A DNA stretch of 54,765 bases, from contig JAWXBZ010000112.1 in assembly GCA_034440375.1 (NCBI GenBank), forward strand, positions 1 through 54,765. The letters run 5' to 3'. How positions within the stretch are numbered: the first letter of the stretch is position 1; each line of letters opens with the position of its first letter. This document shows positions 4,239-45,017 of the stretch, in pieces. The stretch is from Candidatus Eiseniibacteriota bacterium (GTDB taxonomy: Bacteria > Eisenbacteria > RBG-16-71-46 > JABDJR01 > JAWXBZ01). A program made the translations under genes and the position numbers. The notes beneath the pieces were generated by a model. It did no database searches and was not told where the DNA came from. It was given only the letters and a program-made list of their open reading frames with translations.

Positions 4239-4331
4239 CGTCGCTCCTCCGGGACGGGAGGAATATTGGCGTTCAGTCTATCAACATGTGCGTCCGAGTG
4301 GTCAAGCGGTAAGGTCGGGCATTCAACACTC

Positions 4332-4607: not shown

Positions 4608-4611
4608 TTGC

Positions 4612-4725: not shown

Positions 4726-4816
4726 TCGACTTCGACTCGTCAAGTCGGGGAAAGCCATGTCAGGCACGGGCTGTGTGAATCCTTGAACACACTCCAGCGC
4801 GGTGTGTGCGACCGTC

Positions 4817-17467: not shown

Positions 17468-17556
17468 GCGAGGCTGCATTTATAATGAGGTCCTCCAGCT
17501 TTTCCCGGGGTAAGTCCGCCTGTCCAATTTTCAAAAACATCCAGAGGGACTTTTCG

Positions 17557-20037
17557 ATGACGATGATCCGTAAGTCGATGATCCAGGCTACTTTGGCCAT
17601 TTTGATTTCCGGGATTGTCGGAATCTCCGAAGCGCAGGTCAGTCGCAACGTGACACTGCTGGCGCATATCGACAGCTACAGTGAGTATGCCGCCGGCTGC
17701 TCATACGTTCACGCGGACGGTCGGGAGTACGCCTGTATCGGCACCAATACCGGTACGGCCATCTATCGGATCACGGTGCCCACGGCGCCGGTCCTCGTGG
17801 CCTTTATCCCGGGGCCCGCGTCCAGCTGGCGCGAGATGAAACCGTACGGCGATCATGTCTACATCGTAAGCGAGGGCGCCGGCGCCGGAGCTGGCCTCCA
17901 GATCGTGCGCATGACCAATCCGGACGCACCGGTCCTCGCCGCCACCTGGACTGGACAGTTCACCACAGCGCACACCGTGACCATCGACAAGGATCGGGCG
18001 ATCCTCTGGGCCAACGGCGCCAACGGGTCGACGGGCGGCATGCACGCGCTGTCACTGGCTAATCCCGAGGCACCGGTATGGCTCGGGGCCTACTTCAACC
18101 ACTATGCGCACGACAGCCATGTGCGCGGCAATCGCCTCTTCGTGGCCTCCATCTATCAGGGCCTGGAGGTCGTCCTCGACGTGACGAACCCGGCGAGCAT
18201 CATCGAGCTGGCCCAGTGGTCGACACCCGGCCAGTTCACGCACAACAGCTGGTTGTCCGACGATGGCCAGTATCTCTTCACGACCGACGAAAACTCGACC
18301 GGCTACCTGACGGTGTATGACGTATCCAATCTCCCCGCCGTGACCGAGGTGGCCCAGTATTCGGCCAACCCCAACGCCATCGTCCACAACGTCCGCGTGA
18401 AAGGCGACACGGCCTTTGTGTCCTACTACACCGAAGGCGTACGGCTCCTGGACATTTCCGACCCGACGACACCGGCGGAGTTCGGCTACTACGACACCTG
18501 GCCCGGCGCATCGGGCGGTTCCAATGGCAACTGGGATGTCGATCCGTTCTTCGCCTCGGGGGTCTTCATGGTCACCGACATCCAATCAGGGCTCTGGCTC
18601 TTCCGCGCCGAACCTGACTACGGGATCATCGAGGGAACAGTGACCGAATCCGGGCCGGGAACGCCGGTGGCCGGCGTTGATGTGTCGGTCGAGGGGACCA
18701 GTTCACGCTTCCTGACGTACGACTCGGGACGTTACGCGTTTGCCCTGGATGCCGGCAGCTGGACGCTCGACTTCGACAAGTTCGGCTTTTTCCCGGCCAC
18801 GGAAACGAGATCGCTCAGCCTGAACCAGACGGTGATCCTGGACAAGGCAATCATCCGCATGCCGGTCGGGGCGATCAGTGGCGTCGTGACCGGCGGCGTT
18901 GCCGAGACGCCGCTCGTCGGCGCGCAGCTTCATTTGCATGAAACGCCGCTGAAAACGACCAGCGTGGCTCTCGGGGCCTACAACTTTCCCGATGTACCGG
19001 AAAACAGCTGGCTCCTCGAGGCCGAACGGCCAGGCTACCTTCCCGCCACCCGTCAAGTTCAGGTTACCGGCGGCAACACGACCACGGTCGATCTCAACCT
19101 CACGGCGCTCAATTTTTACTACGATGTCGAATCGGCTGCCGGCTGGGCCCTGTCCGCCACCGGTGACAACGCCACCACGGCGGGGCGCTGGATACGCGCC
19201 GATCCGGTCGGCACCGGTCCGCAGGCGCCTGCCGTTGTGCCATTGCGGGGCTCCGTGAACCCCCAGCACCACCCGGAATACGAGAGCGGCCCGCAAAGCG
19301 GTCAGCCGGAGAACGATAATACGCCGGCCCCGGGCACCTTCTGCTTCATTACCGGCAACGGCGTGCCGGGCGGCTCGATTGGCGCCGCCGATGTGGATGG
19401 TGGTCGGACGACCCTCGTCTCGTCGAACATCAACATGGCCGGAACGACCGATCCACACATCACGTTCTACTACTGGTTTGTGAACGACGTCGGCTCGAAT
19501 CCGGGCGAGGACGCGTTCGACATCGCCATCTCCAGCGACGGCGGCACGATCTGGGTGCCGGTGGCCTCCATCCTCCTCTCCAACCACGAATGGACGGCCT
19601 ACGACTTCCGGGTGCTCGACTTTGTGACGCCGACCGCCACCATCAAGGTGCGGTTCATCGCTCAGGACCTGCTTGGCGGTTCGGTCGTCGAGGCCGGTGT
19701 CGATGACTTCGGCTGGTACGAACCGGTGCCGCAGTCGGGCACGCCGGATCGACCCGTGCCGATCGTGGCCGGCGCGCTCACCGCCGGACCGAATCCGTTT
19801 CTCGTGGCCGCCGAGCTCTCGCTCACCATGGCCTCGGCCGGACGGCTGGAGGTGCGTGTGTTCGATGCCGCGGGACGGCTGGTTCGCACGCTGCATGACG
19901 GGGAGGCCTCGTCCGTCTGGAGCGCCCGCTGGGACGGACACGACGACCAGGGACGCTCGGTGCCGCCGGGAATCTACTTCGTCCGAGCGGCGGGGAACGA
20001 CTTTGAGCGATCGACGCGGGTCGTCCGGCTTCGTTGA
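17557..20037 (+). CDS. secreted LVIVD/choice-of-anchor-B-like protein with carboxypeptidase-regulatory-like repeats and FlgD-Ig C-terminal domain
   Basis: Signal peptide, WREMK, YAHD, THNSWLS..TTDE, IVHN, SYYTEG, and C-terminal GPNPF..VFDAAGRLVRTL..WDG.D..GR.VPPGIYFVR. Confidence 0.8.
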   Translation: MTMIRKSMIQATLAILISGIVGISEAQVSRNVTLLAHIDSYSEYAAGCSYVHADGREYACIGTNTGTAIYRITVPTAPVLVAFIPGPASSWREMKPYGDHVYIVSEGAGAGAGLQIVRMTNPDAPVLAATWTGQFTTAHTVTIDKDRAILWANGANGSTGGMHALSLANPEAPVWLGAYFNHYAHDSHVRGNRLFVASIYQGLEVVLDVTNPASIIELAQWSTPGQFTHNSWLSDDGQYLFTTDENSTGYLTVYDVSNLPAVTEVAQYSANPNAIVHNVRVKGDTAFVSYYTEGVRLLDISDPTTPAEFGYYDTWPGASGGSNGNWDVDPFFASGVFMVTDIQSGLWLFRAEPDYGIIEGTVTESGPGTPVAGVDVSVEGTSSRFLTYDSGRYAFALDAGSWTLDFDKFGFFPATETRSLSLNQTVILDKAIIRMPVGAISGVVTGGVAETPLVGAQLHLHETPLKTTSVALGAYNFPDVPENSWLLEAERPGYLPATRQVQVTGGNTTTVDLNLTALNFYYDVESAAGWALSATGDNATTAGRWIRADPVGTGPQAPAVVPLRGSVNPQHHPEYESGPQSGQPENDNTPAPGTFCFITGNGVPGGSIGAADVDGGRTTLVSSNINMAGTTDPHITFYYWFVNDVGSNPGEDAFDIAISSDGGTIWVPVASILLSNHEWTAYDFRVLDFVTPTATIKVRFIAQDLLGGSVVEAGVDDFGWYEPVPQSGTPDRPVPIVAGALTAGPNPFLVAAELSLTMASAGRLEVRVFDAAGRLVRTLHDGEASSVWSARWDGHDDQGRSVPPGIYFVRAAGNDFERSTRVVRLR

Positions 20038-28556: not shown

Positions 28557-31247
28557 TCAAGATTTGGGAATCAGCGCCTGCCAGCCGAGAATGGCCTCGA
28601 AGGCGCCCGTACCGTGCTGCCACTCGATCACCGGCACCAGCACGCGGGTTCCTTCGGCCTCGAAAGTGACCGCGTTCGCCTCGCCGGGAATTGGAAAACA
28701 GCGACGGGGAGGCCCGAACTCGAGGCCGGAGCCTGACTGGATCGCCAGGGTCCACAATTCGTGACGGGAATCGATGTAGGCCAGCCGGTGCCCCTTGTCC
28801 ACCCACTCGACACGGAGAGCCCCGTTCGAGGAGGCCTGGTATCGCGTGTCAGCCTCGGGAAAAGACTCGACGAAGGCCTCGTTCCGCCCTGTTTCCGAGG
28901 AGAGATACGCCAGCCAGCGACCGTCGGGTGAGAGGCGGGCACTTTCCCGTCCGGCGGGCCTCGGGTCGTGAATCCGTGGCTGGCCCCCCTCCGTCATCGG
29001 CACGACATACAGTTGGAACGTGCCGGTGGAATCGGAGGCGGTGGCCAGCAATTCGCGGCCACCGGACAACCACCCGACCGGCGAACAGAAGAGCCCCGGC
29101 CCCTGGAACAGGATCCTCTCCGGGCCGACGCCGTCAACGGACTTGATGCGGATCTCGTACGCCGCATTGCTGCCGGGGCGCTGGGCGGAGTACAGGAGAT
29201 TTCGTCCATCCGGCGACCAGAGAAATTGCCACTTGTAGTTGCCATCGAACGTCAGTCGCCGCTTGCCGCCGGACGCGAGGTCCCGCACCCAGACGTCGAA
29301 CGGATCGCCGAGCACCATCGCCACCCGGCGACCGTCGGGCGACAGGCTCAGGTCGGTTATGTTTCGCTCACGGCCGGCCACCGCCGTGGACCCGTCGGCC
29401 ATGTCCCGCCACTCCAATCGGGCCTCGATTTCGGTGACCCGCTGGACGACGATGAGATCGGAACTGGCGGCCACATTGAGATAGGCGATGTTGGAGGCGT
29501 GGATGTCATTTACGATCCGGCGCCCCGGAGCGGCCAATCGAAGCGACTTCGAATCAAGCCGCTGAATCTGGAGGTTGGGTTCATCGGCGCCCGACCCATC
29601 CATGGTCAGGAGGTAGTCGCCCACCGGCATTCCGGCCGACCTCGACTCGCCGATGTCGGTCACGCCCCCGGTGGTGATGTTGACGGCCTGAATGTGATGA
29701 CGACCGTCGCCTCGAATCGAGGCGAACAGGACATTCCGGCCATCCGACGAAAGACTCGGATACCGGTGGCCCAGCTCGCCGCTGCCCGTATCGGGCCGGG
29801 TAACCGGCGCCACCTGCCCGCCGCCGGCGCTGACCCGATGGAGTCCACCCTGGCGATTGGGCGCAAAGATGATGTCGTCATTCGGCAGCCAGACACCGCC
29901 GCGGGCATCCGGGGCCGGCGCGACCAGAACGGGGCTGCCGCCGTCGACCCGTACCTTGCGGAGCCCCTCGTCGGCGAAGTAGGCGATCCACTCACCATCC
30001 GGCGACCAGAAGGGGAGATTTGCCCGCTCGGTACCCGGCAGGAGCCGTGATTCGATATTGTCCAGGCTGCGCACGCAGAGGTGGCGCGTGCCGAGGCTGT
30101 CGATGCCGCAGAAGGCAATGCGGCGGCCATCCGGTGCGAGCGCCGGCTCCGCGGAAACGGCCAGAGACAAGCCGTTGCCCGGTTCCATTTCGAACCGGAG
30201 GAGCGGCGGTGCGACGGGCGCGTGCCGCCCGGGTGTCGTGGCGGCCATCATGGCCGCGGCACCGATGCCGAAGGCCGCGAGAAGAAGTGCCCAGGTCGGG
30301 ATGGCGAAACGCTTCCTGGCCACCACCGGCGTCGGCACCGAACCGGAACTCCCCGGAATGACGCCACTCGGCAGCGACACGCCGCCGCTCCCCGCCAGTT
30401 CCCGCAGCTCGTGCATCAGATCCCGCGCGCTCTGCCACCGGTCGTCCGGGTCCTTGGTCAGGCAGCGGTCCACCAGGCGGACCAACCCCGGCGGACAGTC
30501 GGGCACGATCGTCGAGACCGGCGTGGGCGTTCGTTCCAGGATCGCGGCAATCAACCCGGCCTGACTCGGCGCCTGGAAAGGACGACGGCCGGTCAACATC
30601 TCGTAAAGAATGAGGCCCATCGCCCAGAGATCGGTGCGGGCATCGGTTTCCTTTCCCTCGAGCTGCTCCGGGGCCATGTATTCCAGCGTGCCGACGATGG
30701 CTCCCTGCGTGGTCAGCGGCGTCGTCATGGTCGGCGTCTGGGAGAGGCCACCGGTGGTTGCGGAAAGCCCCGCCCCGCGCGCGAGGCCAAAGTCGAGCAG
30801 CTTGGCGCCCCCCTTGGTCAGCATGATGTTGGCCGGCTTCAGATCACGGTGGGTGATTCCCTGGCGATGCGCCCGGTCGAGCGCATCGGCCACCTGCGCG
30901 GCGATCCGCCCCGTCTCAGGTATCGATAGCGGGCCACGCTGCAGCCGCTTGGCCAGCGTTTCCCCCTCGAGGAACTCCATGACGAGAAATTCGATGTCGT
31001 CCTCGCGCCCCACGTCGAACAGCGTGCAGATGTGGGGATGATTCAGCGAGGAGATGACGCGCGCCTCGCGTTCGAAGCGCGCCCGAGCCTCCGGCGTATC
31101 AGCCAGCTCCGGCGGGATGACCTTGATGGCCACGAGCCGGTCAAGACGGGTGTCCCGGGCCTGGTACACCTCACCCATGCCGCCCGCGCCGATGGGGGAT
31201 TCGATCAGGTAATGGCCCAGCCGGACGCCGGGAGTCAGTCGGCTCAC
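28557..31247 (-). CDS. Hanks-type Ser/Thr kinase with TM segment and TolB/PD40 propeller
   Basis: GAGGMGEV, HRDLKPAN, DFG, GTLEYMAPE and WSPDG repeats. GTG start at 31247. Confidence 0.9.
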   Translation of the reverse strand: MSRLTPGVRLGHYLIESPIGAGGMGEVYQARDTRLDRLVAIKVIPPELADTPEARARFEREARVISSLNHPHICTLFDVGREDDIEFLVMEFLEGETLAKRLQRGPLSIPETGRIAAQVADALDRAHRQGITHRDLKPANIMLTKGGAKLLDFGLARGAGLSATTGGLSQTPTMTTPLTTQGAIVGTLEYMAPEQLEGKETDARTDLWAMGLILYEMLTGRRPFQAPSQAGLIAAILERTPTPVSTIVPDCPPGLVRLVDRCLTKDPDDRWQSARDLMHELRELAGSGGVSLPSGVIPGSSGSVPTPVVARKRFAIPTWALLLAAFGIGAAAMMAATTPGRHAPVAPPLLRFEMEPGNGLSLAVSAEPALAPDGRRIAFCGIDSLGTRHLCVRSLDNIESRLLPGTERANLPFWSPDGEWIAYFADEGLRKVRVDGGSPVLVAPAPDARGGVWLPNDDIIFAPNRQGGLHRVSAGGGQVAPVTRPDTGSGELGHRYPSLSSDGRNVLFASIRGDGRHHIQAVNITTGGVTDIGESRSAGMPVGDYLLTMDGSGADEPNLQIQRLDSKSLRLAAPGRRIVNDIHASNIAYLNVAASSDLIVVQRVTEIEARLEWRDMADGSTAVAGRERNITDLSLSPDGRRVAMVLGDPFDVWVRDLASGGKRRLTFDGNYKWQFLWSPDGRNLLYSAQRPGSNAAYEIRIKSVDGVGPERILFQGPGLFCSPVGWLSGGRELLATASDSTGTFQLYVVPMTEGGQPRIHDPRPAGRESARLSPDGRWLAYLSSETGRNEAFVESFPEADTRYQASSNGALRVEWVDKGHRLAYIDSRHELWTLAIQSGSGLEFGPPRRCFPIPGEANAVTFEAEGTRVLVPVIEWQHGTGAFEAILGWQALIPKS

Positions 31248-31993
31248 TGTTTCCAGATCTCGCGGATACCGGCCATCATGGCGGTGCCGAAGAGGACGGC
31301 CCCCAGCAGGAAGCATCCACAACAGACGAGGATCGGCAGGAAGATGGCGGCGAACGCGCGGCCCCGGCTCATGCCATGAACGACGGCCAGTCCGTTCGTC
31401 TGGAAGACGAGGCCGGCCGCAAAGTTGAGCAGACCGCCGACCAGCGGGATGAGCAGGAAGAGCGACGCCGTCATCGAGTACGAAAGTACTCGAAAGGTGG
31501 CCGTCCATCCTTGTCGGCCGCCGCCCAGAAGGAGCAGCATGAGATGAGTGATCGAGGCCCCGATGACAAGGATGACTGGGATAAGCAGCGGCGCGAAGAA
31601 GAGCCCGATGACTCCGCCCACGGCACCGAAAAGGGCATCCTTCCGATCGGCAAACATCGGGAGTAATTGTGTCATGACGGTACTGAAAACGGTGTCATAG
31701 ACCGTCTGTGCCACCACGCCAATCATTCCCACAATCAGCGCGTAGAGGACCGGCCGCAGCAGTTCGGAATTCAGCGGCATCCGGGCGAAGGCTTCGCTGG
31801 GACTCGTGACGACCAGCTTGATTGTCTCGAAGAGGGCCGAACCGATTGGCCGCCCCGGCTCCTCCCATGGGATGGGAGGGAGCGACGGAGGTGGCGGCGT
31901 GGGTGGCGGTTCGAACGGCGTGGGTGGCGGTGTGCCGCTGAACTCGGAGCTGCCGGTCCCGGCTACCGTGGGTGGCGTGAACGAACCTTCCAT
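31244..31993 (-). CDS. YIP1 family membrane protein
   Basis: Pro-rich N-terminus, PWE motif, ATFRV..YS, five TM segments. Confidence 0.75.
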   Translation of the reverse strand: MEGSFTPPTVAGTGSSEFSGTPPPTPFEPPPTPPPPSLPPIPWEEPGRPIGSALFETIKLVVTSPSEAFARMPLNSELLRPVLYALIVGMIGVVAQTVYDTVFSTVMTQLLPMFADRKDALFGAVGGVIGLFFAPLLIPVILVIGASITHLMLLLLGGGRQGWTATFRVLSYSMTASLFLLIPLVGGLLNFAAGLVFQTNGLAVVHGMSRGRAFAAIFLPILVCCGCFLLGAVLFGTAMMAGIREIWKQ

Positions 31994-33447: not shown

Positions 33448-34032
33448 TCAGACCGGCGCCACCATCGGCCGACCACGCAGAAGAAACCAGCCGATTGCCG
33501 TGAGGACGACCACGGCGACGACCGAGAGATCGCCGTACTGGTTCATGCTGTTCATGGCGGCGGCCAGGCGCTCGTTGAGATCTTCGCCTGAGAGGCTGGT
33601 TTGTGCGAGGAGGGCGGCGGCGCGATGGGCGGACATGGTGAGGAGGGCTACATGGATGATGTAGAGCAGGGTCGTAGTTCCTGCGGCCAGGAGCAGGCGG
33701 CGGCGCCATCCCAGGCCAAGGAGCGATAGCGACAGAGCGATGCCCAGCGGTACGTCCGGCAGGTTCAGGAGACGTTGGGGGACGCGGGCGGTTCCGCCGG
33801 TGCGTGGGTCGGACAGAAAATATTCGAACTGCACGCTGCGGGCCGACTTCAGCCGGACATCGCCTTGAATTCCGGTCAGTGGCATGCCGATGGTGCTGGC
33901 CCCGGCCGCCACGCCACGCCCCCAGAGTGTGTCGATACGAATCCAGATTGGCAGCATGAAGCCGTAGAGACCGAGCGCGAGGAGGAAGATCAGGACGATT
34001 TGTTTCGGCGCGGTTCGTTCCACGACAGCCAT
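33448..34032 (-). CDS. membrane protein, probably exosortase-H-associated
   Basis: Overlaps the exosortase gene, several TM segments, WRRRLL helix, no GCSG catalytic motif. Confidence 0.6.
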   Translation of the reverse strand: MAVVERTAPKQIVLIFLLALGLYGFMLPIWIRIDTLWGRGVAAGASTIGMPLTGIQGDVRLKSARSVQFEYFLSDPRTGGTARVPQRLLNLPDVPLGIALSLSLLGLGWRRRLLLAAGTTTLLYIIHVALLTMSAHRAAALLAQTSLSGEDLNERLAAAMNSMNQYGDLSVVAVVVLTAIGWFLLRGRPMVAPV

Positions 34033-34556
34033 ATCCCCCAGGCAGCAACGGTTCCGATGATGACGACGACCTGGCCGACGTAAACGTGGGCCATGTCAAA
34101 GAGGCTCGGATGATGCCGGCCGACCCACCAGAGCCCGGCAATCCGGAGCACGTTCAATACAAGCACGGCCGGGAGTATCCACAATAGTCCGGTGAGGCGC
34201 CGCGCCCACGTCACCGGCCAGGCCAGGACGGCCGCCGCCGCGAGTGTCAACGCCGCGAAGCCGCTGCACCCTTCACCAACTTCGCAGGTAAAGCCGCCGC
34301 CGGCAAGCGTCAGACCGGTCAATTCAACCTTCTGTCCCGCGAGCCGCAACAAGGTTTCAGCAAGAGAGGCCTGAACGGCCGTTGCCAGGTAGACGAACCG
34401 GCCGATCGGCGGGATGACGCTGTCCGCGCGGAAAATCCAGTAAAGAAGTCCGAACAGCAGGGCACCGAGCAATGCGAATCGCGCGGCGGGATCGGTCCAT
34501 ATGGAAACCGCGCCCCGGTTGTTAGCCGGGGCGCGGTTCGAATCCGGGAGGGACAT
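33990..34556 (-). CDS. xrtH: exosortase H (IPTL-CTERM-specific)
   Basis: Catalytic triad contexts EGCSG, NVLRI and AHVYVGQ. Directly downstream of an IPTL-CTERM gene. Confidence 0.85.
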   Translation of the reverse strand: MSLPDSNRAPANNRGAVSIWTDPAARFALLGALLFGLLYWIFRADSVIPPIGRFVYLATAVQASLAETLLRLAGQKVELTGLTLAGGGFTCEVGEGCSGFAALTLAAAAVLAWPVTWARRLTGLLWILPAVLVLNVLRIAGLWWVGRHHPSLFDMAHVYVGQVVVIIGTVAAWGIWLSWNEPRRNKSS

Positions 34557-34575
34557 CAGGAGATGTTCACGGGCG

Positions 34576-35130
34576 TCAGGCAGTTCCCCACGGACCGGCC
34601 GCCGTGCGGCGGCGCAGGTACCAGGCGCCGCTGCAAAGGAGAAGGAGCGAGAGGAAGATGAGCCCCCACTCGGACAGTGTTGGAATGGCGCCCGCATCGA
34701 CTTCCATCACCGACTGTCTCGGGATGTTGTCCGAGAGCATGGTGAAGTTGAAGGCTCCGCCGCCGGTGTAGTCAATCTGAACCGAGGAACCACCGCCGAC
34801 GAGTGTGGCAACAAAACTCGGAGAGAGCTGCACATCGAGGGAGTCGCGCAGCTTGGTGGCCGTCTGGATGCAATTCGAAGGGCCGGTGATCGTGCAGCTC
34901 ACCGGCATGAGCACATTCAGCGTGCCGCCACCCCGACCGCTCCTGGATCCGGTGATGTCCGGCTTGTTGAACGTTTCGATGGTGATCTTGCCGTTGTCGC
35001 CAAGCAGGGCATCGCCATTGACCTGGAGATACCGGGTGTTCGCGGCCTGGGCAATGCCCGCGAGGAGGAGGAGCGAGGCCGTCAAAACGACGGCAGCGAG
35101 AGGGGAAATCGCGCGACGAACCAGTGCCAT
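34576..35130 (-). CDS. secreted IPTL-CTERM surface protein
   Basis: Signal peptide ending AQA, C-terminal AIPTLSEWG + TM + RRR, SD GGAGG. Confidence 0.9.
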   Translation of the reverse strand: MALVRRAISPLAAVVLTASLLLLAGIAQAANTRYLQVNGDALLGDNGKITIETFNKPDITGSRSGRGGGTLNVLMPVSCTITGPSNCIQTATKLRDSLDVQLSPSFVATLVGGGSSVQIDYTGGGAFNFTMLSDNIPRQSVMEVDAGAIPTLSEWGLIFLSLLLLCSGAWYLRRRTAAGPWGTA

Positions 35131-35180
35131 GATGGACCTCCAGAAAAAGCGGCCGGTGAGGTGGGGCACCCGGACAAGCT

Positions 35181-35209
35181 AGTCTAGGTGACGATCGTCA
35201 TCGGGGCAA
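35181..35209 (-). promoter_or_regulatory. sigma70-like promoter with palindromic operator candidate
   Basis: TTGCCC-17bp-TAGACT, with the perfect palindrome TGACGATCGTCA at 35189-35200 in the spacer. Confidence 0.5.
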
Positions 35210-35230
35210 CGCAGAACTGGGTTGATGGCA

Positions 35231-38200
35231 TCAGGGGATCGGGAACGGAGCCCGGTTGAAATCAGGCATTGCCGGAAAATCGGCCGGCACCTGTTGCAGA
35301 AGCCAGCCGACAAGTTCGGCTCGCCGGGCCGTGTCGCCGGGGTTCCCGCCGGTGGCGGCCTCCCGAAGGACCAGCACCCGTAACTCAAGGAGCGGCAGCC
35401 TTCCGGCGGCCACGCGAGGAAGGATGGCGTCCAGTTCCCGGGCGGCATCCTCCCGCCGGCCGGCATACAGGAAGGCCTGGGCCAGGCCGATCCGGGCCGA
35501 GGCGAATTCCGGCAACGCGCCAGCCGCCTCGGCTTCCAGGGCCGCCTGGCGCAGGATCGCTTCCGGCTGGTCGCGGGCGGCCGGCCCGGCCGCCAGCCCT
35601 TCGTACAACCGGCGGGTGGCGATCAACGTCGGTTCGTCGAGTTCCAGACCGGCCAGTTCGGCCACCAGGGCGCGGGCCGGCTCGTGCTCCCCCCGCCACA
35701 GGAAGTCGAGGGCCCGCGAGAGCAGGGCCCGGGCCAGCCGCCGGTCATCGCCCAGCTCGCGGGCCAGGGCTTCGGCCTCCGCATACAGCCTGGCCGCACC
35801 ATCCCGATCGCCCAAGATGCCCAGCAGATGCCCCACGTTCAACGATGACTCCGCCTGGCCGGGGCGATCGCCCAGCTGTGCCCGCTCCGCCAGCGATCGG
35901 CGCGCATGGTCGAGCGCCTCCGACCACCGCCCCAGGTAGTATTCGACCACGCCCAGATTATCGAGCACGTTGGCCGCGCCCCAGCGATCGCCGGCCTGTT
36001 CGCGGGCCGTCAGCACCTGTCGATAGTGACCGGCCGCCTCTTCGAACTCCCCGCGCATCGTGGCCACGTTGCCCAACGCCATGGTGCTCTGCGCCACACC
36101 GCGCAAATCGCCGATCTCAAGGAAGCGATGGAGCGCCTCGCGGTAGCTCCGGTCCGCCACATCCAACTCGCCCCGCACGAGGTGCACGTTGGCGATGTTG
36201 GCCTGCAGGCGAGCCGACTCCTGCAGGTGACCGATCTCGCGGGCCAGCGCTCGCGCCTTCATGAAGATGTCGAGCGCGGCCGCGGATTCGCCCCGCTGAA
36301 ACTCGACACTGCCAAGCCAGTTCAGGGCCCGAACCTGTCCCGGCCGCTCGCCGGCCGCCGTCAGCTGCTGGTGCGCCGCGGCGAAACATTCCCGGGCCTG
36401 GTCGTAGCGCCCCTGGCGGACCAGCACAACCCCCGCATCGAGGCGCACGTAAGCCACGCCGGTTTCGTCGCCCAGACGCTGACAGGCCAGCCGCGCCGCT
36501 TCCAGCCGCTCGAAGGCGGCTTCGTAGTCGCCGCGCAGGACCAGCAGTTCACCCAGCTTCCGCTCGGCCCGCGCGGCCCACGCCCAGTTCAACCCCGCCG
36601 TCGCCATCGCCAGCCCTTCCGAGAGCCAGGCATCCGCCGCCGCGTGATCGCCCTGCGAGAGGGCCGCCTCGCCCAGCCAGATGGTGGCCAGCGTCCGCGC
36701 GTCGTCGTTGCCGTCGGCCACCGCCCGCTCGCGCTCGGCCAGTGCCGCCGCGCGCGCGGCCTCCGGCCTGCCGGAATCGAGCAACGTCTCGCAGCGGGCC
36801 CGCGCGATTTCCTGACGCCGATCACCGTTCAGCCCCGCCCGATCCAGTGCCCCGAGCGCCTGATCCAGGAATTCCAGCGCCCGCTCGGACAGGAAAAGCC
36901 GACGCGCCTCGAAGCCGGCCCGGGTGAGGTACGAAACCGACTCCGCGAAGCGCCCCCCCTCGAAGAAGTGATGGCCGATTCGCCCGGCGTAGTCGGCACG
37001 ATCGGCATATCCGTTGGACAGGGTCCCGGCCACCGCGGCGTGATACTCGCGCTTCAGCTCGAGCGGAATTTCTTCCAGCAGCACCTCCCGGATGAGCCCG
37101 TGCGAGAACCGGTGCCCTTCCTCCGTCGGCGCGATGAGATGGTGCCCCTGTGAAAGGACCCGCAGCCGCTTGAGCAGCGTCACGCGGGAAAGGCCCGTAC
37201 CCGCTTCCAGGACATCGGTGTGAAAGACCTCCCCCTCGACGGCCGCCATCTCAAGGATTTCCCGTTCCTCAACGGAGAGGCGGGCGAGCCGGCGGTTCAG
37301 GACATCGGCAATCGTGCCGGGAAGTCCCGAAGCATCGGCCCGCTCCAGGCGGGCCATCTCAAGGGCGAAAAATGGATTGCCCATCGAACGGTGGTGAAGC
37401 CCCTCGAGCCAGGCATCGGACAGGTTGTCATCAAGGAGCGCCGAACGGATCAGGCGTGCCGTTGCCTTCGGATCGAGCGGCGCCAGTGGCATCACGCCGA
37501 AGCGGTCCGAACTCGAAAGGCTTCGAAGAAGATCGACGAGTGGGGGCTCCATGTCACCAGCCCGCACCAGGTCCTCCGGCCGGTACGCCCCGATCAGGAG
37601 GAGATGTGCCCCGGCATGATTCAGCGTCACGTGGTGAAGCAGCGACAGCGTTCCCTCGTCTGCCCAGTGCAGGTCGTCAAGGAAAAGAATCAACGGCTCC
37701 TTGCGTGCCATGCGCTTGAGCAGCGTGTCGACCAGGTGCCAGAGTTGCTCCTTGCTCTTCGGCTCGAGCGCCGGGTCATTCCCCGGATCAAGCAGCAGTT
37801 CGAGGGTCGGCAACACGGTGGCCAGTTCGGGATGCGAAGCGGTCAGCTCGGCGCTCCGCGCGCGCGAGCCGGCGGCCCGACGGGCGAACTCCTCGAGCGC
37901 CTCGACGAATGGCTGGAAATTGCGCCCGGCCTGCGGCGTGCACCGCCCGAACAGGCACAGCCTCCCTGTGGCCTCGGCACGGGAGCGAAACTCGTCCATG
38001 AGACGCGATTTGCCGCCCCCGGCCTCGGCAGCCAACACCAGCGTCCGACCGTGGCCCATCCGGGTTTCGTCGAGTGCGGCCTGCAAACGCGCCAACTCGG
38101 AGTCTCGTCCGATCAGCTGCGGGCGGGGCGGGGACAGCGTCGGTGCCGGCTCCGTGACATTGGCATCGGGCGGGGTCGCGGGGAAACCGACTTCTGTGTC

Positions 38201-39040
38201 AACGGGCGCCGCGGGAGGGGCCGCCTTTCGTCCCGCCAGTTCCTCGTCGATCTCCGACAGGTACCCTTCCACCTCTGCGGCCGAGGCAAATCGATCGGCC
38301 GGTTCCTTCGCCAGGAGCCGCAGCACCACCGTTTCGAGCGCGGCCGGCAACGACTCGTTGATTGAACGGAGGGGTGGTGGTGCGTCGTGAAGGATCGAGT
38401 AGAGGACGGCCACCCCTTCGCCATTCCACGGCGCGACTCCGGTCAGCGCGCGGTGCAGGATGACACCGAGCGCGAAGAGATCGCCGCGTGCATCCATCCC
38501 CTGACCCTTGATCTGCTCCGGGCACATGTAGGCCGCGGTGCCAAGGATGACGCCGGTGGCGGTATGGAAGTTGGCATCACGCACCTTGGCCAGGCCGAAA
38601 TCGGTCAGCTTGATCGAACCGTCCAGGCCGAGCAGGATGTTCGAAGGTTTCAGATCGCGATGGACGACGTTTCGGCCGTGGGCATGATCGAGGGCCCGAC
38701 ACACCTGGATGGCGATCTTGACCACATCGCCCGATGTGGGCGGCATCGTCAGGAGCCGCTCTTCGAGCGTGGTCCCGTCGACGAACTCCAGGCTGATGCA
38801 GCCGCGTTCCGCGTCGAAATCGAAAAGCGTGGTGATGTTGGGATGGTGGAGAATCGCGGCGGCCCGGGCCTCGAACTCGAAGCGTTGACGGGCAGTCAAG
38901 TCGGTCAGGTACTCGGGCTTGAGGAATTTCAGGGCCACCTGGCGGCCGAGACGTTGATCGACCGCCAGGTGCACTTCGCCCATGCCGCCGACGCCCAGCC
39001 GGCGGACTAATCTGTAGTGCGCAAAATCGCCCGCAATCAT
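35231..39040 (-). CDS. Ser/Thr kinase - STAND/AAA ATPase - TPR protein (paralog B)
   Basis: HRDLKPSN, DFG, AEAGGGKSR, LFLDDLHWAD, GNPFF, C-terminal TPR repeats, no TM segment. Confidence 0.9.
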   Translation of the reverse strand: MIAGDFAHYRLVRRLGVGGMGEVHLAVDQRLGRQVALKFLKPEYLTDLTARQRFEFEARAAAILHHPNITTLFDFDAERGCISLEFVDGTTLEERLLTMPPTSGDVVKIAIQVCRALDHAHGRNVVHRDLKPSNILLGLDGSIKLTDFGLAKVRDANFHTATGVILGTAAYMCPEQIKGQGMDARGDLFALGVILHRALTGVAPWNGEGVAVLYSILHDAPPPLRSINESLPAALETVVLRLLAKEPADRFASAAEVEGYLSEIDEELAGRKAAPPAAPVDTEVGFPATPPDANVTEPAPTLSPPRPQLIGRDSELARLQAALDETRMGHGRTLVLAAEAGGGKSRLMDEFRSRAEATGRLCLFGRCTPQAGRNFQPFVEALEEFARRAAGSRARSAELTASHPELATVLPTLELLLDPGNDPALEPKSKEQLWHLVDTLLKRMARKEPLILFLDDLHWADEGTLSLLHHVTLNHAGAHLLLIGAYRPEDLVRAGDMEPPLVDLLRSLSSSDRFGVMPLAPLDPKATARLIRSALLDDNLSDAWLEGLHHRSMGNPFFALEMARLERADASGLPGTIADVLNRRLARLSVEEREILEMAAVEGEVFHTDVLEAGTGLSRVTLLKRLRVLSQGHHLIAPTEEGHRFSHGLIREVLLEEIPLELKREYHAAVAGTLSNGYADRADYAGRIGHHFFEGGRFAESVSYLTRAGFEARRLFLSERALEFLDQALGALDRAGLNGDRRQEIARARCETLLDSGRPEAARAAALAERERAVADGNDDARTLATIWLGEAALSQGDHAAADAWLSEGLAMATAGLNWAWAARAERKLGELLVLRGDYEAAFERLEAARLACQRLGDETGVAYVRLDAGVVLVRQGRYDQARECFAAAHQQLTAAGERPGQVRALNWLGSVEFQRGESAAALDIFMKARALAREIGHLQESARLQANIANVHLVRGELDVADRSYREALHRFLEIGDLRGVAQSTMALGNVATMRGEFEEAAGHYRQVLTAREQAGDRWGAANVLDNLGVVEYYLGRWSEALDHARRSLAERAQLGDRPGQAESSLNVGHLLGILGDRDGAARLYAEAEALARELGDDRRLARALLSRALDFLWRGEHEPARALVAELAGLELDEPTLIATRRLYEGLAAGPAARDQPEAILRQAALEAEAAGALPEFASARIGLAQAFLYAGRREDAARELDAILPRVAAGRLPLLELRVLVLREAATGGNPGDTARRAELVGWLLQQVPADFPAMPDFNRAPFPIP

Positions 39041-39078
39041 GGCGGGAAGTTTACGTCATGCCCGATCGCGGAGGCAGC

Positions 39079-39564
39079 TCAAGAGCGGAGGCGAATCCAC
39101 CCCTGTGACTTGAGCAAACTCCAAGTGGACGGTACCTGTGGAACGGCCCCATCCTCAACCTGGATCGTCTGCCCCTCGACATTGACCTCGATGTTGATGT
39201 TCCAGCCGACGGACCCGCTCGGCGGGCGGCTGACATAGATGATGCAGGCGTTCGTCGGCGCGATCTGGACGGTATAGAGCTCCGGCAGCGAGGCGACCAA
39301 TTCGGCATACATGGCCGTTGTCGTCTGCGCGCAGGTCCAACCCGGAAGTACCGTGACGATGATGTCGAAAAGCGCGGCCGGCTGGCTGAGCGGCCCGATC
39401 GGGTCGTGGCGGCCAGGCTTGCCGAAGTCCTCGATGGTGATGTGGACGCTTCCACCGCCGGTTGAATTGCCGCCGGTCGTGATGGAACGAATCTGGGCGT
39501 CAGCGGCAACCGTCGTCACCACTGCGAGGACACTGGAAAGCATGAGTGTTTTCAAGAGATGCAT
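39079..39564 (-). CDS. small secreted protein homologous to the IPTL protein, with TWxxLK-type tail
   Basis: Signal peptide ending ADA, SD GGAGGGAG, shared ITIExFxKP and CxQTxT motifs, tail VPSTWSLLKSQGW. Confidence 0.8.
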   Translation of the reverse strand: MHLLKTLMLSSVLAVVTTVAADAQIRSITTGGNSTGGGSVHITIEDFGKPGRHDPIGPLSQPAALFDIIVTVLPGWTCAQTTTAMYAELVASLPELYTVQIAPTNACIIYVSRPPSGSVGWNINIEVNVEGQTIQVEDGAVPQVPSTWSLLKSQGWIRLRS

Positions 39565-39760
39565 CGGCTCCCTCCAAGGGGGAATCAAGAAACCGGCGGC
39601 GCCAATTGTCCCCAATCAATTGCGCGTGGGCGCGATGCCGGCAGGCTGCTGCAACCGGTTTATACCCAACCGGTGCGCCAGTGAGAGGAAGTCTAACTCA
39701 CTTCCCACTTCAGCGCCCCATGCAAAAGAGGATTTGCCCTGTCTCCAGCCTGATTTTGGC

Positions 39761-42700
39761 CTACGGAAGGGGAAGCATTTCCCAGTCCGCCTCGGTCCTC
39801 GGGGCCTGGCCTGGCGGCAGATGCAAGTTAAGGGCGGCCAGGATCTCGGCCGCTCCTGGCCTCGGTGCCCCGGCACTTTCAAGCAGGCGGTGAGCCAGGA
39901 GCCGGAGCGTCGGCAGGGCGCCAACCGGCAGCCGGTCAATGACTTCTCCAGCTTCACGGGCGGTCTCCAGGGGGTCCCGGATCAGCAGGTGGCGCCCACG
40001 AGCCAGCCGGGCCGCCGCCAGTTCCGGGAGCGCCTTCGATCGCTCGCCGGCCGCCACCGCCTGGTCGAACCGCTCCCCCGTCAGGACCGGGTCGCCGCCG
40101 GCTCCGGCCATGGCCTCGAGGAGCTGACCCCGGGCCAGAAGGGCCGGATCCGACACCTGACGGGCGTTGGACAACAGGAGCTGCTCCGCGGCCGCCGCGG
40201 CGTTTCCCTTGAAGAGTTCGAGCCCGGCCAGCATGAGCCTCGCCTTCACCTCGCGATCCGCGTCGCCCATCTCCATGGCAAGGATCAGTGCGTCCTTGAA
40301 AAGTTTTCGCGCCAACGCCGTGCCGCCCAGCACCTGGTACAACGCCCCGACATTGAGGGACGATTCGATCTGCCCGGGCCGGTCGCGCAACTCCTCGCGG
40401 ATCGTCTGGGCATGCAGCATGTGAACGCGGGCATCTTCCCAGCGGCCGAGCCGGTATTCGGTGACCCCGAGATTGTCCAGCCCATTGGCCATGCCCCAGC
40501 GGTCCTTCATGGTTTCACGGGGCACCAGCGATTGTCGGTAGGACTCGGCAGCCGCCTCATACTCCCCGCGAAGGAAATTGACATTGCCCAGCGCCATCAG
40601 GGCCTGGGCCTCGCCACGATGATCGCCGATGCCGTGGAATCGTGTCCGCGAATCCTCGTACGCCGCCTCGGCCCGGGCGATGTCGCCCCGCGCCAGGTGG
40701 ACGTTCCCGATGTTGGCCTGGAGATTGGCCACCCCCTGCCGGTCGCCGATCCGACCGGCAACCGGCAGAGCCGCCTCGCAAGTGGCCAGGGCCTCATCGA
40801 GATTCCCCCGTCGCCGGAACAGGCTGCCAAGGAACGACAGCGTGCGCGCCTCGCCGTGACGATCACCCAGCGAGCGGAACTCGGCCAGCGCAGCCTCGAG
40901 GCTTTCCCTGGCGGCCTCGAACTCGCCGCGCCGTGCGTGAAGTGCCCCCATGTCCATCCGGACCTCGGCCACCCCCTGCCGGTCGTCGGTTGCCTCGAGT
41001 CGTTCGCGCGCCGCGGTGTAGCGAGTCACCGCCGAATCGAAATCGCCGCGCCGCAGGGAGAGTGTCGCCAGCTTGCGCTGGCTCCTCGGCACGCCGGTGG
41101 AAGCCGATTCATCCTGTTGATAGTGCTCGAAGGCCAGCTGGAGATGCGCTTCGGCCGCGTCGTAATCACCCGCCTCGAGGGCGGCCTCCCCCAGGATCTC
41201 CTCGGCCGCCGGCCGATCGGGATGATCCGGCGTGGCCGTTGCATCCGCCAGCATCAACTCGGCCGCCTGGCGCGCGTCGGCCGGCCGCCCCAGCTTGACC
41301 AGCACCGCGGCCCGCGCCCCGAGGATTTCCGTCCGCCGCGGCGTCAGACCGACCGATCCCTGATGCGCGGTCAGCGATCGGTCGAGATAAATCAACGCCC
41401 GGTCGTACAGGAAGAGGCGGCGGGCTTCGGCGGCCGCGCGCCACAAGTATGGCAATGCTTCCTCCAATCGTCCGGCGCGATAGAGATGCCCGGAAATCTG
41501 CCCCGCGTAGTCCGACCGGTCCGCGTAGCCCTTGAGGAGATAGGACGCCACCACGGAATGGCACTCCTGCCGGAGGTCGGCAGGAAGCTCCTTGAGCAGC
41601 ACTTCCCGAATCAATCCCTGCGTGAAGCGATATCCCTCGGCGATCGGCTCGACCAGCTCATGTGTCCTGGACAGATCGCGCAGCCGGGACAGGAGCTTGA
41701 GGCGCGGCATGCCGGTGGCCTCGGCGATGATGTCGGCGTGGAACGTGGCTCCCTCGACGGCGGCCACGTCGAGAATCTCGCGCTCCTCGTTGCTGAGTCG
41801 CGCCAGGCGTCGCGCCACGACATCGGCGATGTTCCGCGGCAGAAGCGCCTTGCTCGACTCGTCGGTCGATTGGTCGGCGGACACGGCCGTTGGGTCCGGC
41901 GTCGAGATGAGCCGCAGAATCTCCACCGTGAAGAGCGGATTTCCCTGTGCCCGCCGGTGAATCAGCGGCGCCATCGAGGCGGCCAGTGGACTGTCGGGGA
42001 AGGCCGCCTTGATGATCAACGCCGTGCCGGCCTCGTCGAGCGGCGGTAGTTCGATGACCTCGAGATTCGAGCCCTCGGCCAGGCCGCGCACCATCTCCCC
42101 CGATTCGCGCGTCCGCCCCGCCGGATCGACCAGTTCCTCCGGTCGGTACATGCCAAGGAGCATGAGCCGGGATTCGGCGATATTTCGCGCCAGGTGCCAG
42201 GAGAGCGCCACGGTTCCCTCGTCGGCCCAATGGAGATCGTCGATGATCAGGACGAGCGGCACCACTTCGGCAATTCGCTTCAGCACCGATTCGAGGAGGA
42301 ACCAGAGTTCCTCACGGGTCCTGGGCTGTCCGCCGGCCGGCGCGTCGTCCAGCAGCAACTGCAACGTCGGCAGGAGCGAACCCAATGCCTCCGGATCCGC
42401 CGACAGATCGGCCAGGTAGCGATCGCCGCCATCCACGACGCCGTGGGCAAATCCCTCCAGCGCGTCGACCAACGCGCCGAAGTTGCGGTTCCCCTGCTGG
42501 TGGCAGATCCCCTTCAGAAACAGGACTCGCTTCTTCCGACTCCGTCGGGCCACCTCGTCGACGAACCGGCTCTTCCCCGCGCCGGCCGTGCCACGGATCA
42601 AGACCGGGCGGCCGATGCCGGTCTCCATTTCCGTCAGGAGTTCGTCCATCTTGAGGAGAGCCTCGTCCCGCCCGACGAATGGAAGTTCGGATCGCTCTCC

Positions 42701-43621
42701 CTCGCGTGGCGGAACTGCCCTTGGCGCGGGGGTCGTCGACGCTTGCGACCCCTTCGCCGGTTTCGGTGCGGGTGGTGCCGGGGTGGCTACGGCGGGACGC
42801 ATCTCGGGCGGCAGGAGCAGCCAGGCCTCGGCCTCAAGCAGGTAGGATTCCGCAAGGCTGGCCGAACCGAGACGAGTTTCGGGCTCCTTGTCCATGAGAC
42901 GCGTCACCAATTCATCCAGTGACGGCGGCGCATCCGGCGCGACCAGGCTCAATGGCTCCGGCTCGTGCTGCAGCACGGCGAACAGGACTTCCATGAGGCT
43001 CTCGCCAGGCCAGGGCAGCCGGCCGACCATCGCGCGATAAACAAGCACGCCCAGCGCGAACAGATCGCCGCGATGATCCGAACCAAGCCCCGAGATCCGC
43101 TCCGGCGCCATGTAGGCCGGTGTCCCCTGCGCGATCTCCTGGGTGGCCTGCGCCAGCGCATCCCGCACCTTGGCCAGGCCAAAGTCCGAAAGCTTGACGC
43201 TTCCGTCCTTGCCAAGAAGGACGTTGGCCGGCTTCAGATCGCGGTGAACGACATTGCGGCCGTGGGCATGGGCCAGCCCGCGACAGATGGCCAGGCAGGT
43301 CTGCACGGCCAGGAGCGGGTCCATCGGCTGCTCCAGCCGATCTTCGAGCGTCTCCCCCTCCACGAACTCAAAGGAGAGGAATCCCTGCTCGCCGTCGAAT
43401 TCATACAGGGTCGTGATATGCGGATGATTGAGGATGGCGGCCGCCCGCGCCTCAAACTCCATGCGCTGCCGCGCCTTGGCATCCCCCAGGAGTTCCGGAC
43501 GGAGGAACTTGAGCGCCACCTGACGCCCCAGCCGCGTATCCTCGGCCTTGAAAACCTCCCCCATCGCCCCCGCCCCAAGGCGCCCGAGGATCTTATAGTG
43601 GGATACTTGCTCGGCGATCAT
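39761..43621 (-). CDS. Ser/Thr kinase - STAND/AAA ATPase - TPR protein (paralog A)
   Basis: HRDLKPAN, DFG, GTPAYMAPE, GTAGAGKSR, IIDDLHWAD, GNPLF, TPR repeats. Confidence 0.9.
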   Translation of the reverse strand: MIAEQVSHYKILGRLGAGAMGEVFKAEDTRLGRQVALKFLRPELLGDAKARQRMEFEARAAAILNHPHITTLYEFDGEQGFLSFEFVEGETLEDRLEQPMDPLLAVQTCLAICRGLAHAHGRNVVHRDLKPANVLLGKDGSVKLSDFGLAKVRDALAQATQEIAQGTPAYMAPERISGLGSDHRGDLFALGVLVYRAMVGRLPWPGESLMEVLFAVLQHEPEPLSLVAPDAPPSLDELVTRLMDKEPETRLGSASLAESYLLEAEAWLLLPPEMRPAVATPAPPAPKPAKGSQASTTPAPRAVPPREGERSELPFVGRDEALLKMDELLTEMETGIGRPVLIRGTAGAGKSRFVDEVARRSRKKRVLFLKGICHQQGNRNFGALVDALEGFAHGVVDGGDRYLADLSADPEALGSLLPTLQLLLDDAPAGGQPRTREELWFLLESVLKRIAEVVPLVLIIDDLHWADEGTVALSWHLARNIAESRLMLLGMYRPEELVDPAGRTRESGEMVRGLAEGSNLEVIELPPLDEAGTALIIKAAFPDSPLAASMAPLIHRRAQGNPLFTVEILRLISTPDPTAVSADQSTDESSKALLPRNIADVVARRLARLSNEEREILDVAAVEGATFHADIIAEATGMPRLKLLSRLRDLSRTHELVEPIAEGYRFTQGLIREVLLKELPADLRQECHSVVASYLLKGYADRSDYAGQISGHLYRAGRLEEALPYLWRAAAEARRLFLYDRALIYLDRSLTAHQGSVGLTPRRTEILGARAAVLVKLGRPADARQAAELMLADATATPDHPDRPAAEEILGEAALEAGDYDAAEAHLQLAFEHYQQDESASTGVPRSQRKLATLSLRRGDFDSAVTRYTAARERLEATDDRQGVAEVRMDMGALHARRGEFEAARESLEAALAEFRSLGDRHGEARTLSFLGSLFRRRGNLDEALATCEAALPVAGRIGDRQGVANLQANIGNVHLARGDIARAEAAYEDSRTRFHGIGDHRGEAQALMALGNVNFLRGEYEAAAESYRQSLVPRETMKDRWGMANGLDNLGVTEYRLGRWEDARVHMLHAQTIREELRDRPGQIESSLNVGALYQVLGGTALARKLFKDALILAMEMGDADREVKARLMLAGLELFKGNAAAAAEQLLLSNARQVSDPALLARGQLLEAMAGAGGDPVLTGERFDQAVAAGERSKALPELAAARLARGRHLLIRDPLETAREAGEVIDRLPVGALPTLRLLAHRLLESAGAPRPGAAEILAALNLHLPPGQAPRTEADWEMLPLP

Positions 43622-44000: not shown

Positions 44001-45017
44001 CTACCGCTTCCCCGCCACGAAATCCGCGTATCGCCCCACGTCCTCGGTGCTGCCGATGATCAGCGGGGTGCGCTGGTGCAGCCCGTCGGGCACCTTGTCC
44101 AGGATGCGCTGGCGGCCGTCGATGGCGGCGCCGCCGGCTTGCTCGACGATGAAGGCCAGGGGGTTGGCCTCGTACAGCAGGCGGAGTTTACCCTCTGGAT
44201 TCCTGTTGTCGGCGGGGTAGAGATAGATGCCGCCGTACAAGAGCGTGCGGTGGATGTCGCAGACCATCGAGCCGATGTAGCGGCTGGAGTAGGGGCGGTT
44301 GTCGGACTTCTCCTCGGCCTTCACCCAGTCGACGTAGCGGCGCGTGGGCTCATCCCACCGGTGATAGTTTCCTTCATTCGTGGAGTAGATCTGGCCGCGC
44401 TTCGGGATGCGGATGTTCTCGTGGCTCAGGAGGAACTCACCAACGGAGGGGTCGAGCGTGAAACCGTGGACGCCGGCGCCGGTCGTGTACACGAACATCG
44501 TGCTGGAGCCGTACATCACGTATCCGGCGGCCACCTGCTTGAATCCCGGCTGCATGCAGTCGGTGGCGTCGCCCCGGCCGTCGCCGGGGGTGATGCGGCG
44601 CAGAACCGAAAAGATCGTGCCGATCGTGACGTTGGCGTCGATGTTCGAGGATCCGTCCAGCGGGTCATAGTTCAGTACGTACTTGCCGCACGGGTACGGG
44701 TCCGGAATATGGAGAACTTCCTCGTTCTCCTCGCTGGCCATCACGCACAAATGGCCGCCATGATCCATCGCCCGGAACATCGTCAGGTCGGCGAAGACAT
44801 CCAGCTTCTCCTGTTCCTCGCCCTGGACATTCACATCACCGGCCTTGCCAAGAATGTTGACCAGCCCGGCCTTGGTCACCTCGCGCTGAATCATCTTGGC
44901 GGCCAGCGTGATATCCGACATCAATCCCGAGAAATCACCGGTGGCGCCGGGGAAATTTCGCTCCATCTCCATGATGTGGCGTGAGATGGTGACGACCTTG
45001 GAAGTCATGAGCCCCAC
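44001..45017 (-). CDS. fbp: class 1 fructose-1,6-bisphosphatase
   Basis: NVQGEEQEKLD, SEE, DPLDGSSN, RYIGSMV, GKLRLLYE. Confidence 0.96.
   Translation of the reverse strand: MGLMTSKVVTISRHIMEMERNFPGATGDFSGLMSDITLAAKMIQREVTKAGLVNILGKAGDVNVQGEEQEKLDVFADLTMFRAMDHGGHLCVMASEENEEVLHIPDPYPCGKYVLNYDPLDGSSNIDANVTIGTIFSVLRRITPGDGRGDATDCMQPGFKQVAAGYVMYGSSTMFVYTTGAGVHGFTLDPSVGEFLLSHENIRIPKRGQIYSTNEGNYHRWDEPTRRYVDWVKAEEKSDNRPYSSRYIGSMVCDIHRTLLYGGIYLYPADNRNPEGKLRLLYEANPLAFIVEQAGGAAIDGRQRILDKVPDGLHQRTPLIIGSTEDVGRYADFVAGKR

Follow-up and report, generated by a model that had tools for sequence, protein, structure and literature searches.

Conserved pairing of PknK-like STAND kinases with a family of exported small proteins points to a candidate control circuit in Candidatus Eiseniibacteriota

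A cluster of six genes was analyzed on a contig of a Candidatus Eiseniibacteriota bacterium (GenBank assembly GCA_034440375.1, contig JAWXBZ010000112.1). The window, that is, the whole stretch of DNA that was analyzed, is 54,765 nt long and the genes are read in one direction on the minus strand at positions 33448–43621. Two of them, termed kinA and kinB, encode large Ser/Thr kinases, each followed by the gene for a small protein, small A and small B, respectively; genes for a short exosortase and a membrane protein complete the cluster (Table 1). The arrangement probably represents a conserved operon-level cassette and control circuit that joins an exported surface protein to a PknK-like STAND kinase as control element, a reading in which we place moderate confidence. 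The pairing of kinase and small protein recurs in other genomes of the phylum, and the two partners have diverged jointly.

The kinA and kinB proteins share a three-part architecture. The Pkinase domain (PF00069) scored 151.3 bits in kinA and 140.6 bits in kinB against a Pfam cut-off of 31.7, AAA_16 scored 71 and 93 bits, respectively (cut-off 32.6), and TPR_12 gave 132 and 104 bits, far over the cut-off. TPR_MalT (PF17874) matched with 46.7 bits in kinA and 40.6 bits in kinB against a cut-off of 45. The VAxK lysine (VALKF), the HRD motif (HRDLKP) and DFG are present in both proteins; in an alignment of 19 kinases K38, D129 and D147-G149 are nearly invariant and the Walker A and B residues G341, G343, K344 and D455 are invariant in 19/19. 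The first glycine of Walker A is replaced by A in kinB. The two proteins align end-to-end with 44% identity in 1246 columns, and kinB is closest (53% identity) to the kinase of locus L050. A hydropathy scan revealed no transmembrane segments in either protein, the sole hydrophobic peak (residues 441–460 of kinA) being the Walker B strand, and no DNA-binding family, helix-turn-helix (HTH) or cyclase was present among the Pfam matches. Both proteins are soluble and cytoplasmic and, judged by sequence, their architecture is that of PknK-like, MalT-related STAND proteins. In NCBIfam, the STAND region is best matched by the TOMM kinase/cyclase fusion TIGR03903, at model positions 479–930, with scores of 235.5 and 244.3 bits (cut-off 705.75). 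The genome to which the window belongs has a third kinase of this architecture, a copy at the end of contig C94 that is without a small partner. The genome as a whole encodes ~40 Ser/Thr kinases, including a Pkinase+PD40 protein at window positions 28557–31508.

Small A and small B are distant true paralogs with ~22% identity. Plain BLASTP aligned only their N-termini (E 6e-6), whereas profile-profile comparison by hhalign of nine A-type with five B-type sequences gave a probability of 96.5% and an E-value of 8.4e-10 across 129 columns. The motifs ITIE.F.KP, C.QT and GA[IV]P vary little or not at all among 13 A-type and B-type sequences. Both proteins possess a Sec signal peptide, and two conserved cysteines are aligned per copy in each type, a pair that may form a disulfide. 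An exhaustive profile search of 1,835,955,588 proteins returned 53 representatives of the family at E≤1e-3. Before the broad family alignment (A4) was built, 11 of 64 proteins were dropped: the fragments P0003, P0011, P0025, P0053 and P0064; P0010, a near-copy of P0009; P0019, P0029 and P0061, which had long multi-stretch matches; and P0032 and P0035, longer exported proteins in which the small domain stands behind N-terminal extensions of 80–250 aa. In all aligned members a signal peptide precedes a domain of ~115 aa, and a C-terminal signal follows it; TRYI..GTSTG.G...ITIE.F marks the N-terminal part of the domain and VPGQ.I.E its final part. As a separate observation, the small domain of L053:12-1976 ends a 655-aa frame that has a C-type lectin match.

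The C-terminal signals are diverse. When the 53 members were classified by script, eight showed the IPTL motif plus an anchor, 30 another anchor plus a basic cluster (one of these is of the tag type by eye), 13 an anchorless W[GS]x[IVL]K tail, and two were truncated. Within the family, these sorting signals are interchangeable. Small B matches the IPTL-CTERM models PF18203 (35.7 bits, cut-off 20.8) and TIGR04174 (37–40.9 bits, cut-off 20.5), and motifs other than IPTL, e.g., VPxLG and DAPxxSPxG, precede the anchor in related substrates. The N-terminal segment of small A is its only hydrophobic one; the protein has no IPTL-CTERM match and matched no family in Pfam or NCBIfam. Its tail is common to eight homologs with 46–100% identity.

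AF2 modeling predicts one and the same fold for small A (pLDDT 83.6) and small B (pLDDT 83.9), with a pLDDT above 90 in the folded domain: three strands, a helix and four strands, at residues 32–144 in small B. The small B model has an extra C-terminal helix (154–177) and the tail in the small A model is of low confidence. Foldseek produced no match at E≤1e-3 in the PDB. In a wide structural search the top match was a cyanophage sheath protein (Z 11.9, 88 residues, rmsd 1.9), followed by other sheaths (Z 10.8 and 10.4) and the flagellar proteins FliC (flagellin; 9.5) and FliD (9.1). Residue ranges place these matches in an inserted domain of each target chain, and these inserted domains in phage sheath, flagellin and FliD are surface-exposed. 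The fold is consistent with a domain for surface display, with no enzyme function indicated. The ESM Atlas gave no named cluster, with feature scores of 0.85 or lower.

The linkage between the two gene types was assessed by searching 206 genomes of the phylum with the family model. Twelve genomes, the window's own included, gave a match; G146, G048 and G172 match only in the C-terminal sorting-signal part and were left out of the count. The resulting set of nine genomes holds, outside the window, 12 small genes at 11 loci in eight genomes from three family-level groups. At 8/11 loci the small gene is linked to a Pkinase+AAA_16+TPR gene in the same orientation, two loci lack such a gene and the remaining one (L054) is unreadable, the contig ending 145 nt after the small gene. 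The kinase gene directly adjoins the small gene on the same strand at L050, L051, L052, L055, L057, L059 and L060, with an estimated gap of ~10–200 nt. The linked kinase of L057 is of Pkinase+AAA_22+TPR type with no AAA_16 match, and at L055 two tandem small genes lie beside the kinase. At L056 the kinase and small genes share a strand and are separated by a single gene, that for a short exosortase, which is on the opposite strand. The order of the small and kinase genes varies among loci, and the flanking genes differ at every locus except at two of family f6. Apart from the contig of the window itself, a scan of metagenomes recovered a single relative (L002), 55% identical, in which the order kinA, small A, kinB is kept; no relative emerged when one-genome-per-species contigs were scanned with alignments A1 and A5. 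The kinA homolog of L002 (1218–5065) is split into overlapping frames (1218–2780 and 2618–5065), which reflects either a frameshift or a sequencing error.

The two partners also have diverged together. Because small A and small B are genuine distant paralogs, the kinase and its small partner were duplicated as a unit. One main split is common to the kinase tree (support 100) and the small-protein tree (support 99), and family f10 has genomes on either side of it; thus, the split reflects two old module types rather than species descent. Pairwise identities of kinases and small proteins are correlated (Mantel r 0.63, with 0/5000 permutations as high), and divergence is far more rapid in the small proteins, e.g., L059 and L060 share 33% in the small protein vs. 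69% in the kinase. An extended kinase tree was assembled from the linked kinases, eight unlinked kinases of the same architecture and the contig-end copy on C94. The linked kinases cluster in this tree, with two label changes compared to a shuffled mean of 6.2 and 0/500 shuffles as low, and the C94 kinase groups with the unlinked kinase of the sister genus. The preliminary description of this DNA, drawn up from the window's sequence alone, had proposed six genes on one strand at this place, with two full-length kinase paralogs of ~1270 aa devoid of transmembrane segments and obvious DNA-binding domains, and small proteins that share motifs and have a common origin. The comparisons above agree with it on these points. 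Linkage of the homologs to kinase-AAA_16-TPR genes and congruence of the trees were named there as checks; neither of the outcomes that it listed as refuting, unlinked homologs and small proteins without significant similarity, was observed, and the trees agree in their main split. The pair emerges as a real unit that was duplicated and is conserved.

Under the favored reading, each unit would consist of a kinase and a fast-evolving small protein that is Sec-exported and delivered to the cell surface by its C-terminal signal. In some copies this signal would be an exosortase-type anchor, with IPTL-CTERM or one of its variants; in others it would be a 'TW[SG]xIK' tag with no anchor. The window would comprise two diverged units in tandem, then a short exosortase that would cleave small B, then a membrane protein. 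STAND proteins are described as closed until an inducer binds the sensor, after which nucleotide exchange, oligomerization and effector activation ensue, as stated in the available portion of the source (PMC6468293). By analogy, binding of a cue to the TPR sensor would open the nucleotide-binding core of kinA or kinB, leading to oligomerization and switching on of the N-terminal kinase, which then would phosphorylate cytoplasmic targets. The cue might be tied to biogenesis of the partner at the inner face of the membrane: the precursor, its C-terminal anchor or tail, or the sorting enzyme. As the folded partner is outside the cell, a cue at the inner face is likelier than the mature exported domain.

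Several observations weigh against a control circuit of this kind. Small A and 13–14/53 family members are without a membrane anchor, so that a cytoplasmic tail could not serve as a general cue, and because small A has none, no single tail-based model fits both units. L053 and L058 have no kinase neighbor, although both genomes also contain a linked pair, and kinases of the same architecture without a partner exist in other genomes of the phylum and on C94. All of the genomic context derives from one phylum, shared descent inflates both the linkage counts and the Mantel test, and the deep nodes of the kinase tree are not resolved (support 67). The mechanism that couples kinase and partner is one that we infer. 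The two loci that lack a kinase, the partnerless kinases and the single phylum also are the points that favor passive linkage, in which an exosortase substrate merely rides in an operon with an unrelated regulator and the pairing is kept by descent instead of function. This is an improbable explanation: the pairing outlasts changes in gene order, in sorting signal and in all flanks in two deep module types within f10, and the small intergenic gaps at the seven adjacent loci speak against it.

Whether the kinase might recognize its partner directly bears on the proposal, made in the preliminary description, that each STAND kinase senses its own exported partner in the manner of RRNPP receptors. 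As a receptor-ligand pair, each TPR sensor would bind its own small protein, or a re-imported peptide of it. That kinase and partner were duplicated and diverged together accords with this scheme, as does the inducer site in the TPR sensors of STAND proteins (PMC6468293). The B-type tails and the L050 tail, moreover, loosely share a WG[STN] ending after RRR. Set against these points is the location of the partners. Since the kinases are cytoplasmic, without transmembrane segments, and the small proteins bear Sec signal peptides (and conserved cysteines), the folded domain and the TPR sensor reside in different compartments, and sensing of the exported partner itself is not borne out. The kinase may instead control deployment of the partner, as the preliminary description also allowed. 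Nor does the analogy with RRNPP systems hold, as the partner is a folded domain of ~115–120 residues and not a short propeptide. There is no peptide importer in the cluster, the nearest SBP_bac_5 gene lying ~9 kb off, and small A has neither an anchor nor a cytoplasmic tail. A receptor-ligand pair is regarded as unlikely. Complex prediction with the TPR region of kinB (690–1269) and small B, both entered as alignments, returned a score of 0.00, which was weighed neither for nor against binding.

In another alternative, which we consider doubtful, the cassette would form a two-piece receptor or checkpoint in which the basic tail of the partner, before or after cleavage, is read by the TPR region of its own kinase. 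The partner would be a single-pass surface protein of which the anchor and a short basic tail are the only cytoplasmic part, and Ser/Thr phosphorylation might report on sorting of the surface protein, a stub-sensing logic that recalls regulated proteolysis. Copies with the anchorless 'TW[SG]xIK' tag then would represent a derived branch with a different signaling route.

The exosortase of the cassette carries the family signature (TIGR04178, 48 bits vs. cut-off 23; PF09721, 49.2 bits vs. 25.7). Residues C97, R138 and H157 are invariant in five short exosortases from module loci; the Cys, Arg and His are what we take to be the catalytic residues. A short exosortase gene is part of the cluster at 5/12 loci (window, L050, L052, L055 and L056). 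The preliminary description had named the gene xrtH and regarded its product as dedicated to the module. XrtH (TIGR04177) indeed is the best specific match, yet its 73.6 bits are under the cut-off of 86; the exosortases of the sister loci scored 42–71 bits for XrtH, three of the four slightly higher for XrtX, and all under the cut-off. The cassette's gene provides the sole exosortase match in the window's genome, which is 94% complete, but 'dedicated' is too strong because the genome has a second IPTL-CTERM protein, on contig C15 (L008, 7331–7885, minus strand, 181 aa, 32.7 bits vs. cut-off 20.5). That gene converges on a pair encoding a histidine kinase and a sigma-54 response regulator. Its product is comparable to small B in size and layout but was rejected as a family member, since the similarity in sequence is confined to the sorting signal (tblastn 26% identity, E 1e-6). 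Exosortase-family genes occur in 148/206 genomes of the phylum, so their mere presence is not discriminating. The 194-aa membrane protein matched no family in Pfam, NCBIfam or PADLOC. Proteins of like size with multiple transmembrane segments follow the exosortase in L052 and L055, and no homology was detected between the window protein and those at the same position in L052/L056 or L055.

A role in anti-phage or stress defense also was considered, in which a STAND kinase comparable to Avs-like sensors or to Stk2-type kinases would detect an invader and the surface protein would serve as receptor mask or decoy. The kinase domain matches the PADLOC models PD-T4-6, mad6 and Stk2, and the partner evolves rapidly and adopts a fold similar to that of exposed phage-sheath and flagellin domains. 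The best 25 of the 33–34 PADLOC matches, however, cover the generic kinase domain only (residues ~5–350), no PADLOC 2.0 model matched either small protein, the exosortase or the membrane protein, and the flanking genes are of housekeeping type. This possibility is rated as very improbable.

Table 1. Genes of the cassette in the window, in the order in which they are read.
Gene	Position	Strand	Length	Description
kinA	39761–43621	-	1286 aa	Cytoplasmic Hanks-type Ser/Thr kinase + AAA_16 (STAND NTPase) + TPR sensor
small A	39079–39564	-	161 aa	Sec-exported member of new family; C-terminal 'VPxVPxTWSxIK' tag; without membrane anchor; extent assumes a start at the ATG behind GGAGGG
kinB	35231–39040	-	1269 aa	kinA paralog with the same three-part architecture
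small B	34576–35130	-	184 aa	Sec-exported; IPTL-CTERM sorting signal (transmembrane helix plus RRR)
Short-form exosortase (XrtH/XrtX-like)	33990–34556	-	188 aa from ATG	
Membrane protein	33448–34032	-	194 aa	Three hydrophobic segments (hydropathy)

The intergenic gaps from kinA to the exosortase gene are, in order, 196, 38, 100 and 19 nt, the last being the distance from the stop codon of small B to the exosortase ATG, and the start of the membrane protein gene overlaps the end of the exosortase gene by 43 nt. Contigs from two other sequencing runs extend from the 5′ end of kinB through small A into kinA with zero differences; the two runs may stem from the same sampling campaign. Among the 21 runs listed, none was of RNA. 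Apparent joints between the two kinase genes in run contigs look like cross-mapping of kinase domains and were discounted, the contigs being used as evidence of presence only. A sigma-54 promoter pattern gave 20 matches vs. 19 expected, with none in the three intergenic regions, and a scan for sigma-70 promoters and terminators yielded a signal at or below chance. An MFS transporter gene is convergent on the 3′ end of the cassette, an FBPase gene lies upstream of kinA on the same strand (44001–45017), and the genes that flank the cassette are neither of defense nor mobile type. A phosphofructokinase gene is located just downstream of the linked kinase in both f6 loci (L052:14287-15591, L056:14708-15865); this placement and that of FBPase beside kinA may be due to chance or old synteny. 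Large secreted LVIVD + CarboxypepD_reg proteins that end in FlgD_ig are encoded both in the window (17485–20037) and at L052:15725-18262.

The C-terminal tag of small A also is found elsewhere. The motif 'PVxPxTW[SG]x[IV]K' plus 2–12 residues, at 39079–39150 in the small A gene, ends 68 of the 36,511 stop-to-stop frames in the window's genome (e.g., L061:253-999, L064:77-853 and L063:76-975) compared to six in random internal sequence windows. A stricter motif selects 63 proteins; as judged by a crude criterion, 42 of these begin with a signal-like sequence. In the 11 tagged proteins that were tested, the tag itself lies outside all Pfam and NCBIfam models. Among these, an NHL protein has ScyF, a PEP-CTERM protein, as its top match in NCBIfam, and the tag also is present in G021, a genome without an exosortase match. 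In G161 the small-protein gene is followed by one (L051:10133-11371) for a secreted product of ~285 aa that ends ...RRSWGQIKKAWSDRP, a tag of the same type; this following gene is not an exosortase gene, the short exosortase of G161 being 3 Mb away. The TW[SG]xIK-type tag looks like an unnamed sorting signal.

Comparison with described systems indicates which features of the cassette are familiar. PknK of Mycobacterium tuberculosis is a Hanks kinase fused to a MalT-like STAND region and, like kinA and kinB, is a soluble protein in which an N-terminal Ser/Thr kinase is joined to an AAA_16-type NTPase and a TPR/MalT-like region. We know of no exported partner or exosortase described beside pknK. 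The likeness to PknK is one of architecture, and clades of the present kinases are delimited by their linkage to the small-protein gene. PknK is cited in a MalT STAND paper and in substrate studies (PMC4381067, PMC9045387, PMC12239584). The AAA_16 core with Walker A/B motifs is shared with STAND ATPases of MalT/PH0952 type, as may be the TPR_MalT region, which matches just over the cut-off in kinA and under it in kinB, whereas the effector here is a protein kinase instead of a DNA-binding domain. MalT also is restrained by the transporter subunit MalK (PMC6468293). The TOMM kinase/cyclase fusion (TIGR03903) likewise is a large STAND signaling protein encoded beside genes for small exported products; kinA and kinB are far under its cut-off, lack a cyclase domain and have no TOMM maturation genes nearby.

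On the side of protein sorting, a short exosortase adjoins a bona fide IPTL-CTERM protein both here and in the XrtH/IPTL-CTERM system (TIGR04177, TIGR04174), with the difference that the present enzyme does not reach the XrtH cut-off and that a STAND kinase is not part of the described system. Dedicated cytoplasmic signaling encoded with exosortase substrates has a parallel in PrsK/PrsR/PrsT of the XrtA/PEP-CTERM system, although the regulator here is a Ser/Thr kinase in place of a two-component pair. Sigma-54 activators are encoded beside family members or IPTL-CTERM genes at L050, L055 and on contig C15. These were examined as PrsR/PrsK and rejected, with scores of 268–329 against a cut-off of 502.6 and of 41–51 against 300. 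RRNPP systems are defined by a short secreted propeptide and by a receptor with an HTH or phosphatase output. They resemble the cassette in that the gene for a cytoplasmic TPR protein lies beside that for an exported product and that the two are duplicated as pairs. The partner here, in contrast, is a folded surface domain in a protein of 161–184 aa with a sorting signal, the receptor is a kinase with a STAND core and no HTH, and the cluster has no Opp system. A literature search uncovered no description that combines exosortase, threonine kinase and TPR, in line with the preliminary view of the system as undescribed, and IPTL-CTERM and 'exosortase H' are scarcely mentioned in the literature searched. 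Taken singly, the parts are familiar in kind; what appears to be undescribed is their conserved pairing, along with the family of small proteins.

Exosortase systems are widespread, and their control or monitoring by cells is almost unstudied. For bacterial STAND kinases of PknK type, we know of no inducers. The pairing provides a testable candidate cue, biogenesis of the partner, for a STAND kinase and at the same time a candidate regulator for a sorting cassette. The small proteins constitute a new family of surface proteins in which the sorting signal alternates between an exosortase anchor and an unnamed C-terminal tag, and the presence of this tag on ~60 proteins of the genome hints at a further sorting route in this uncultured phylum.

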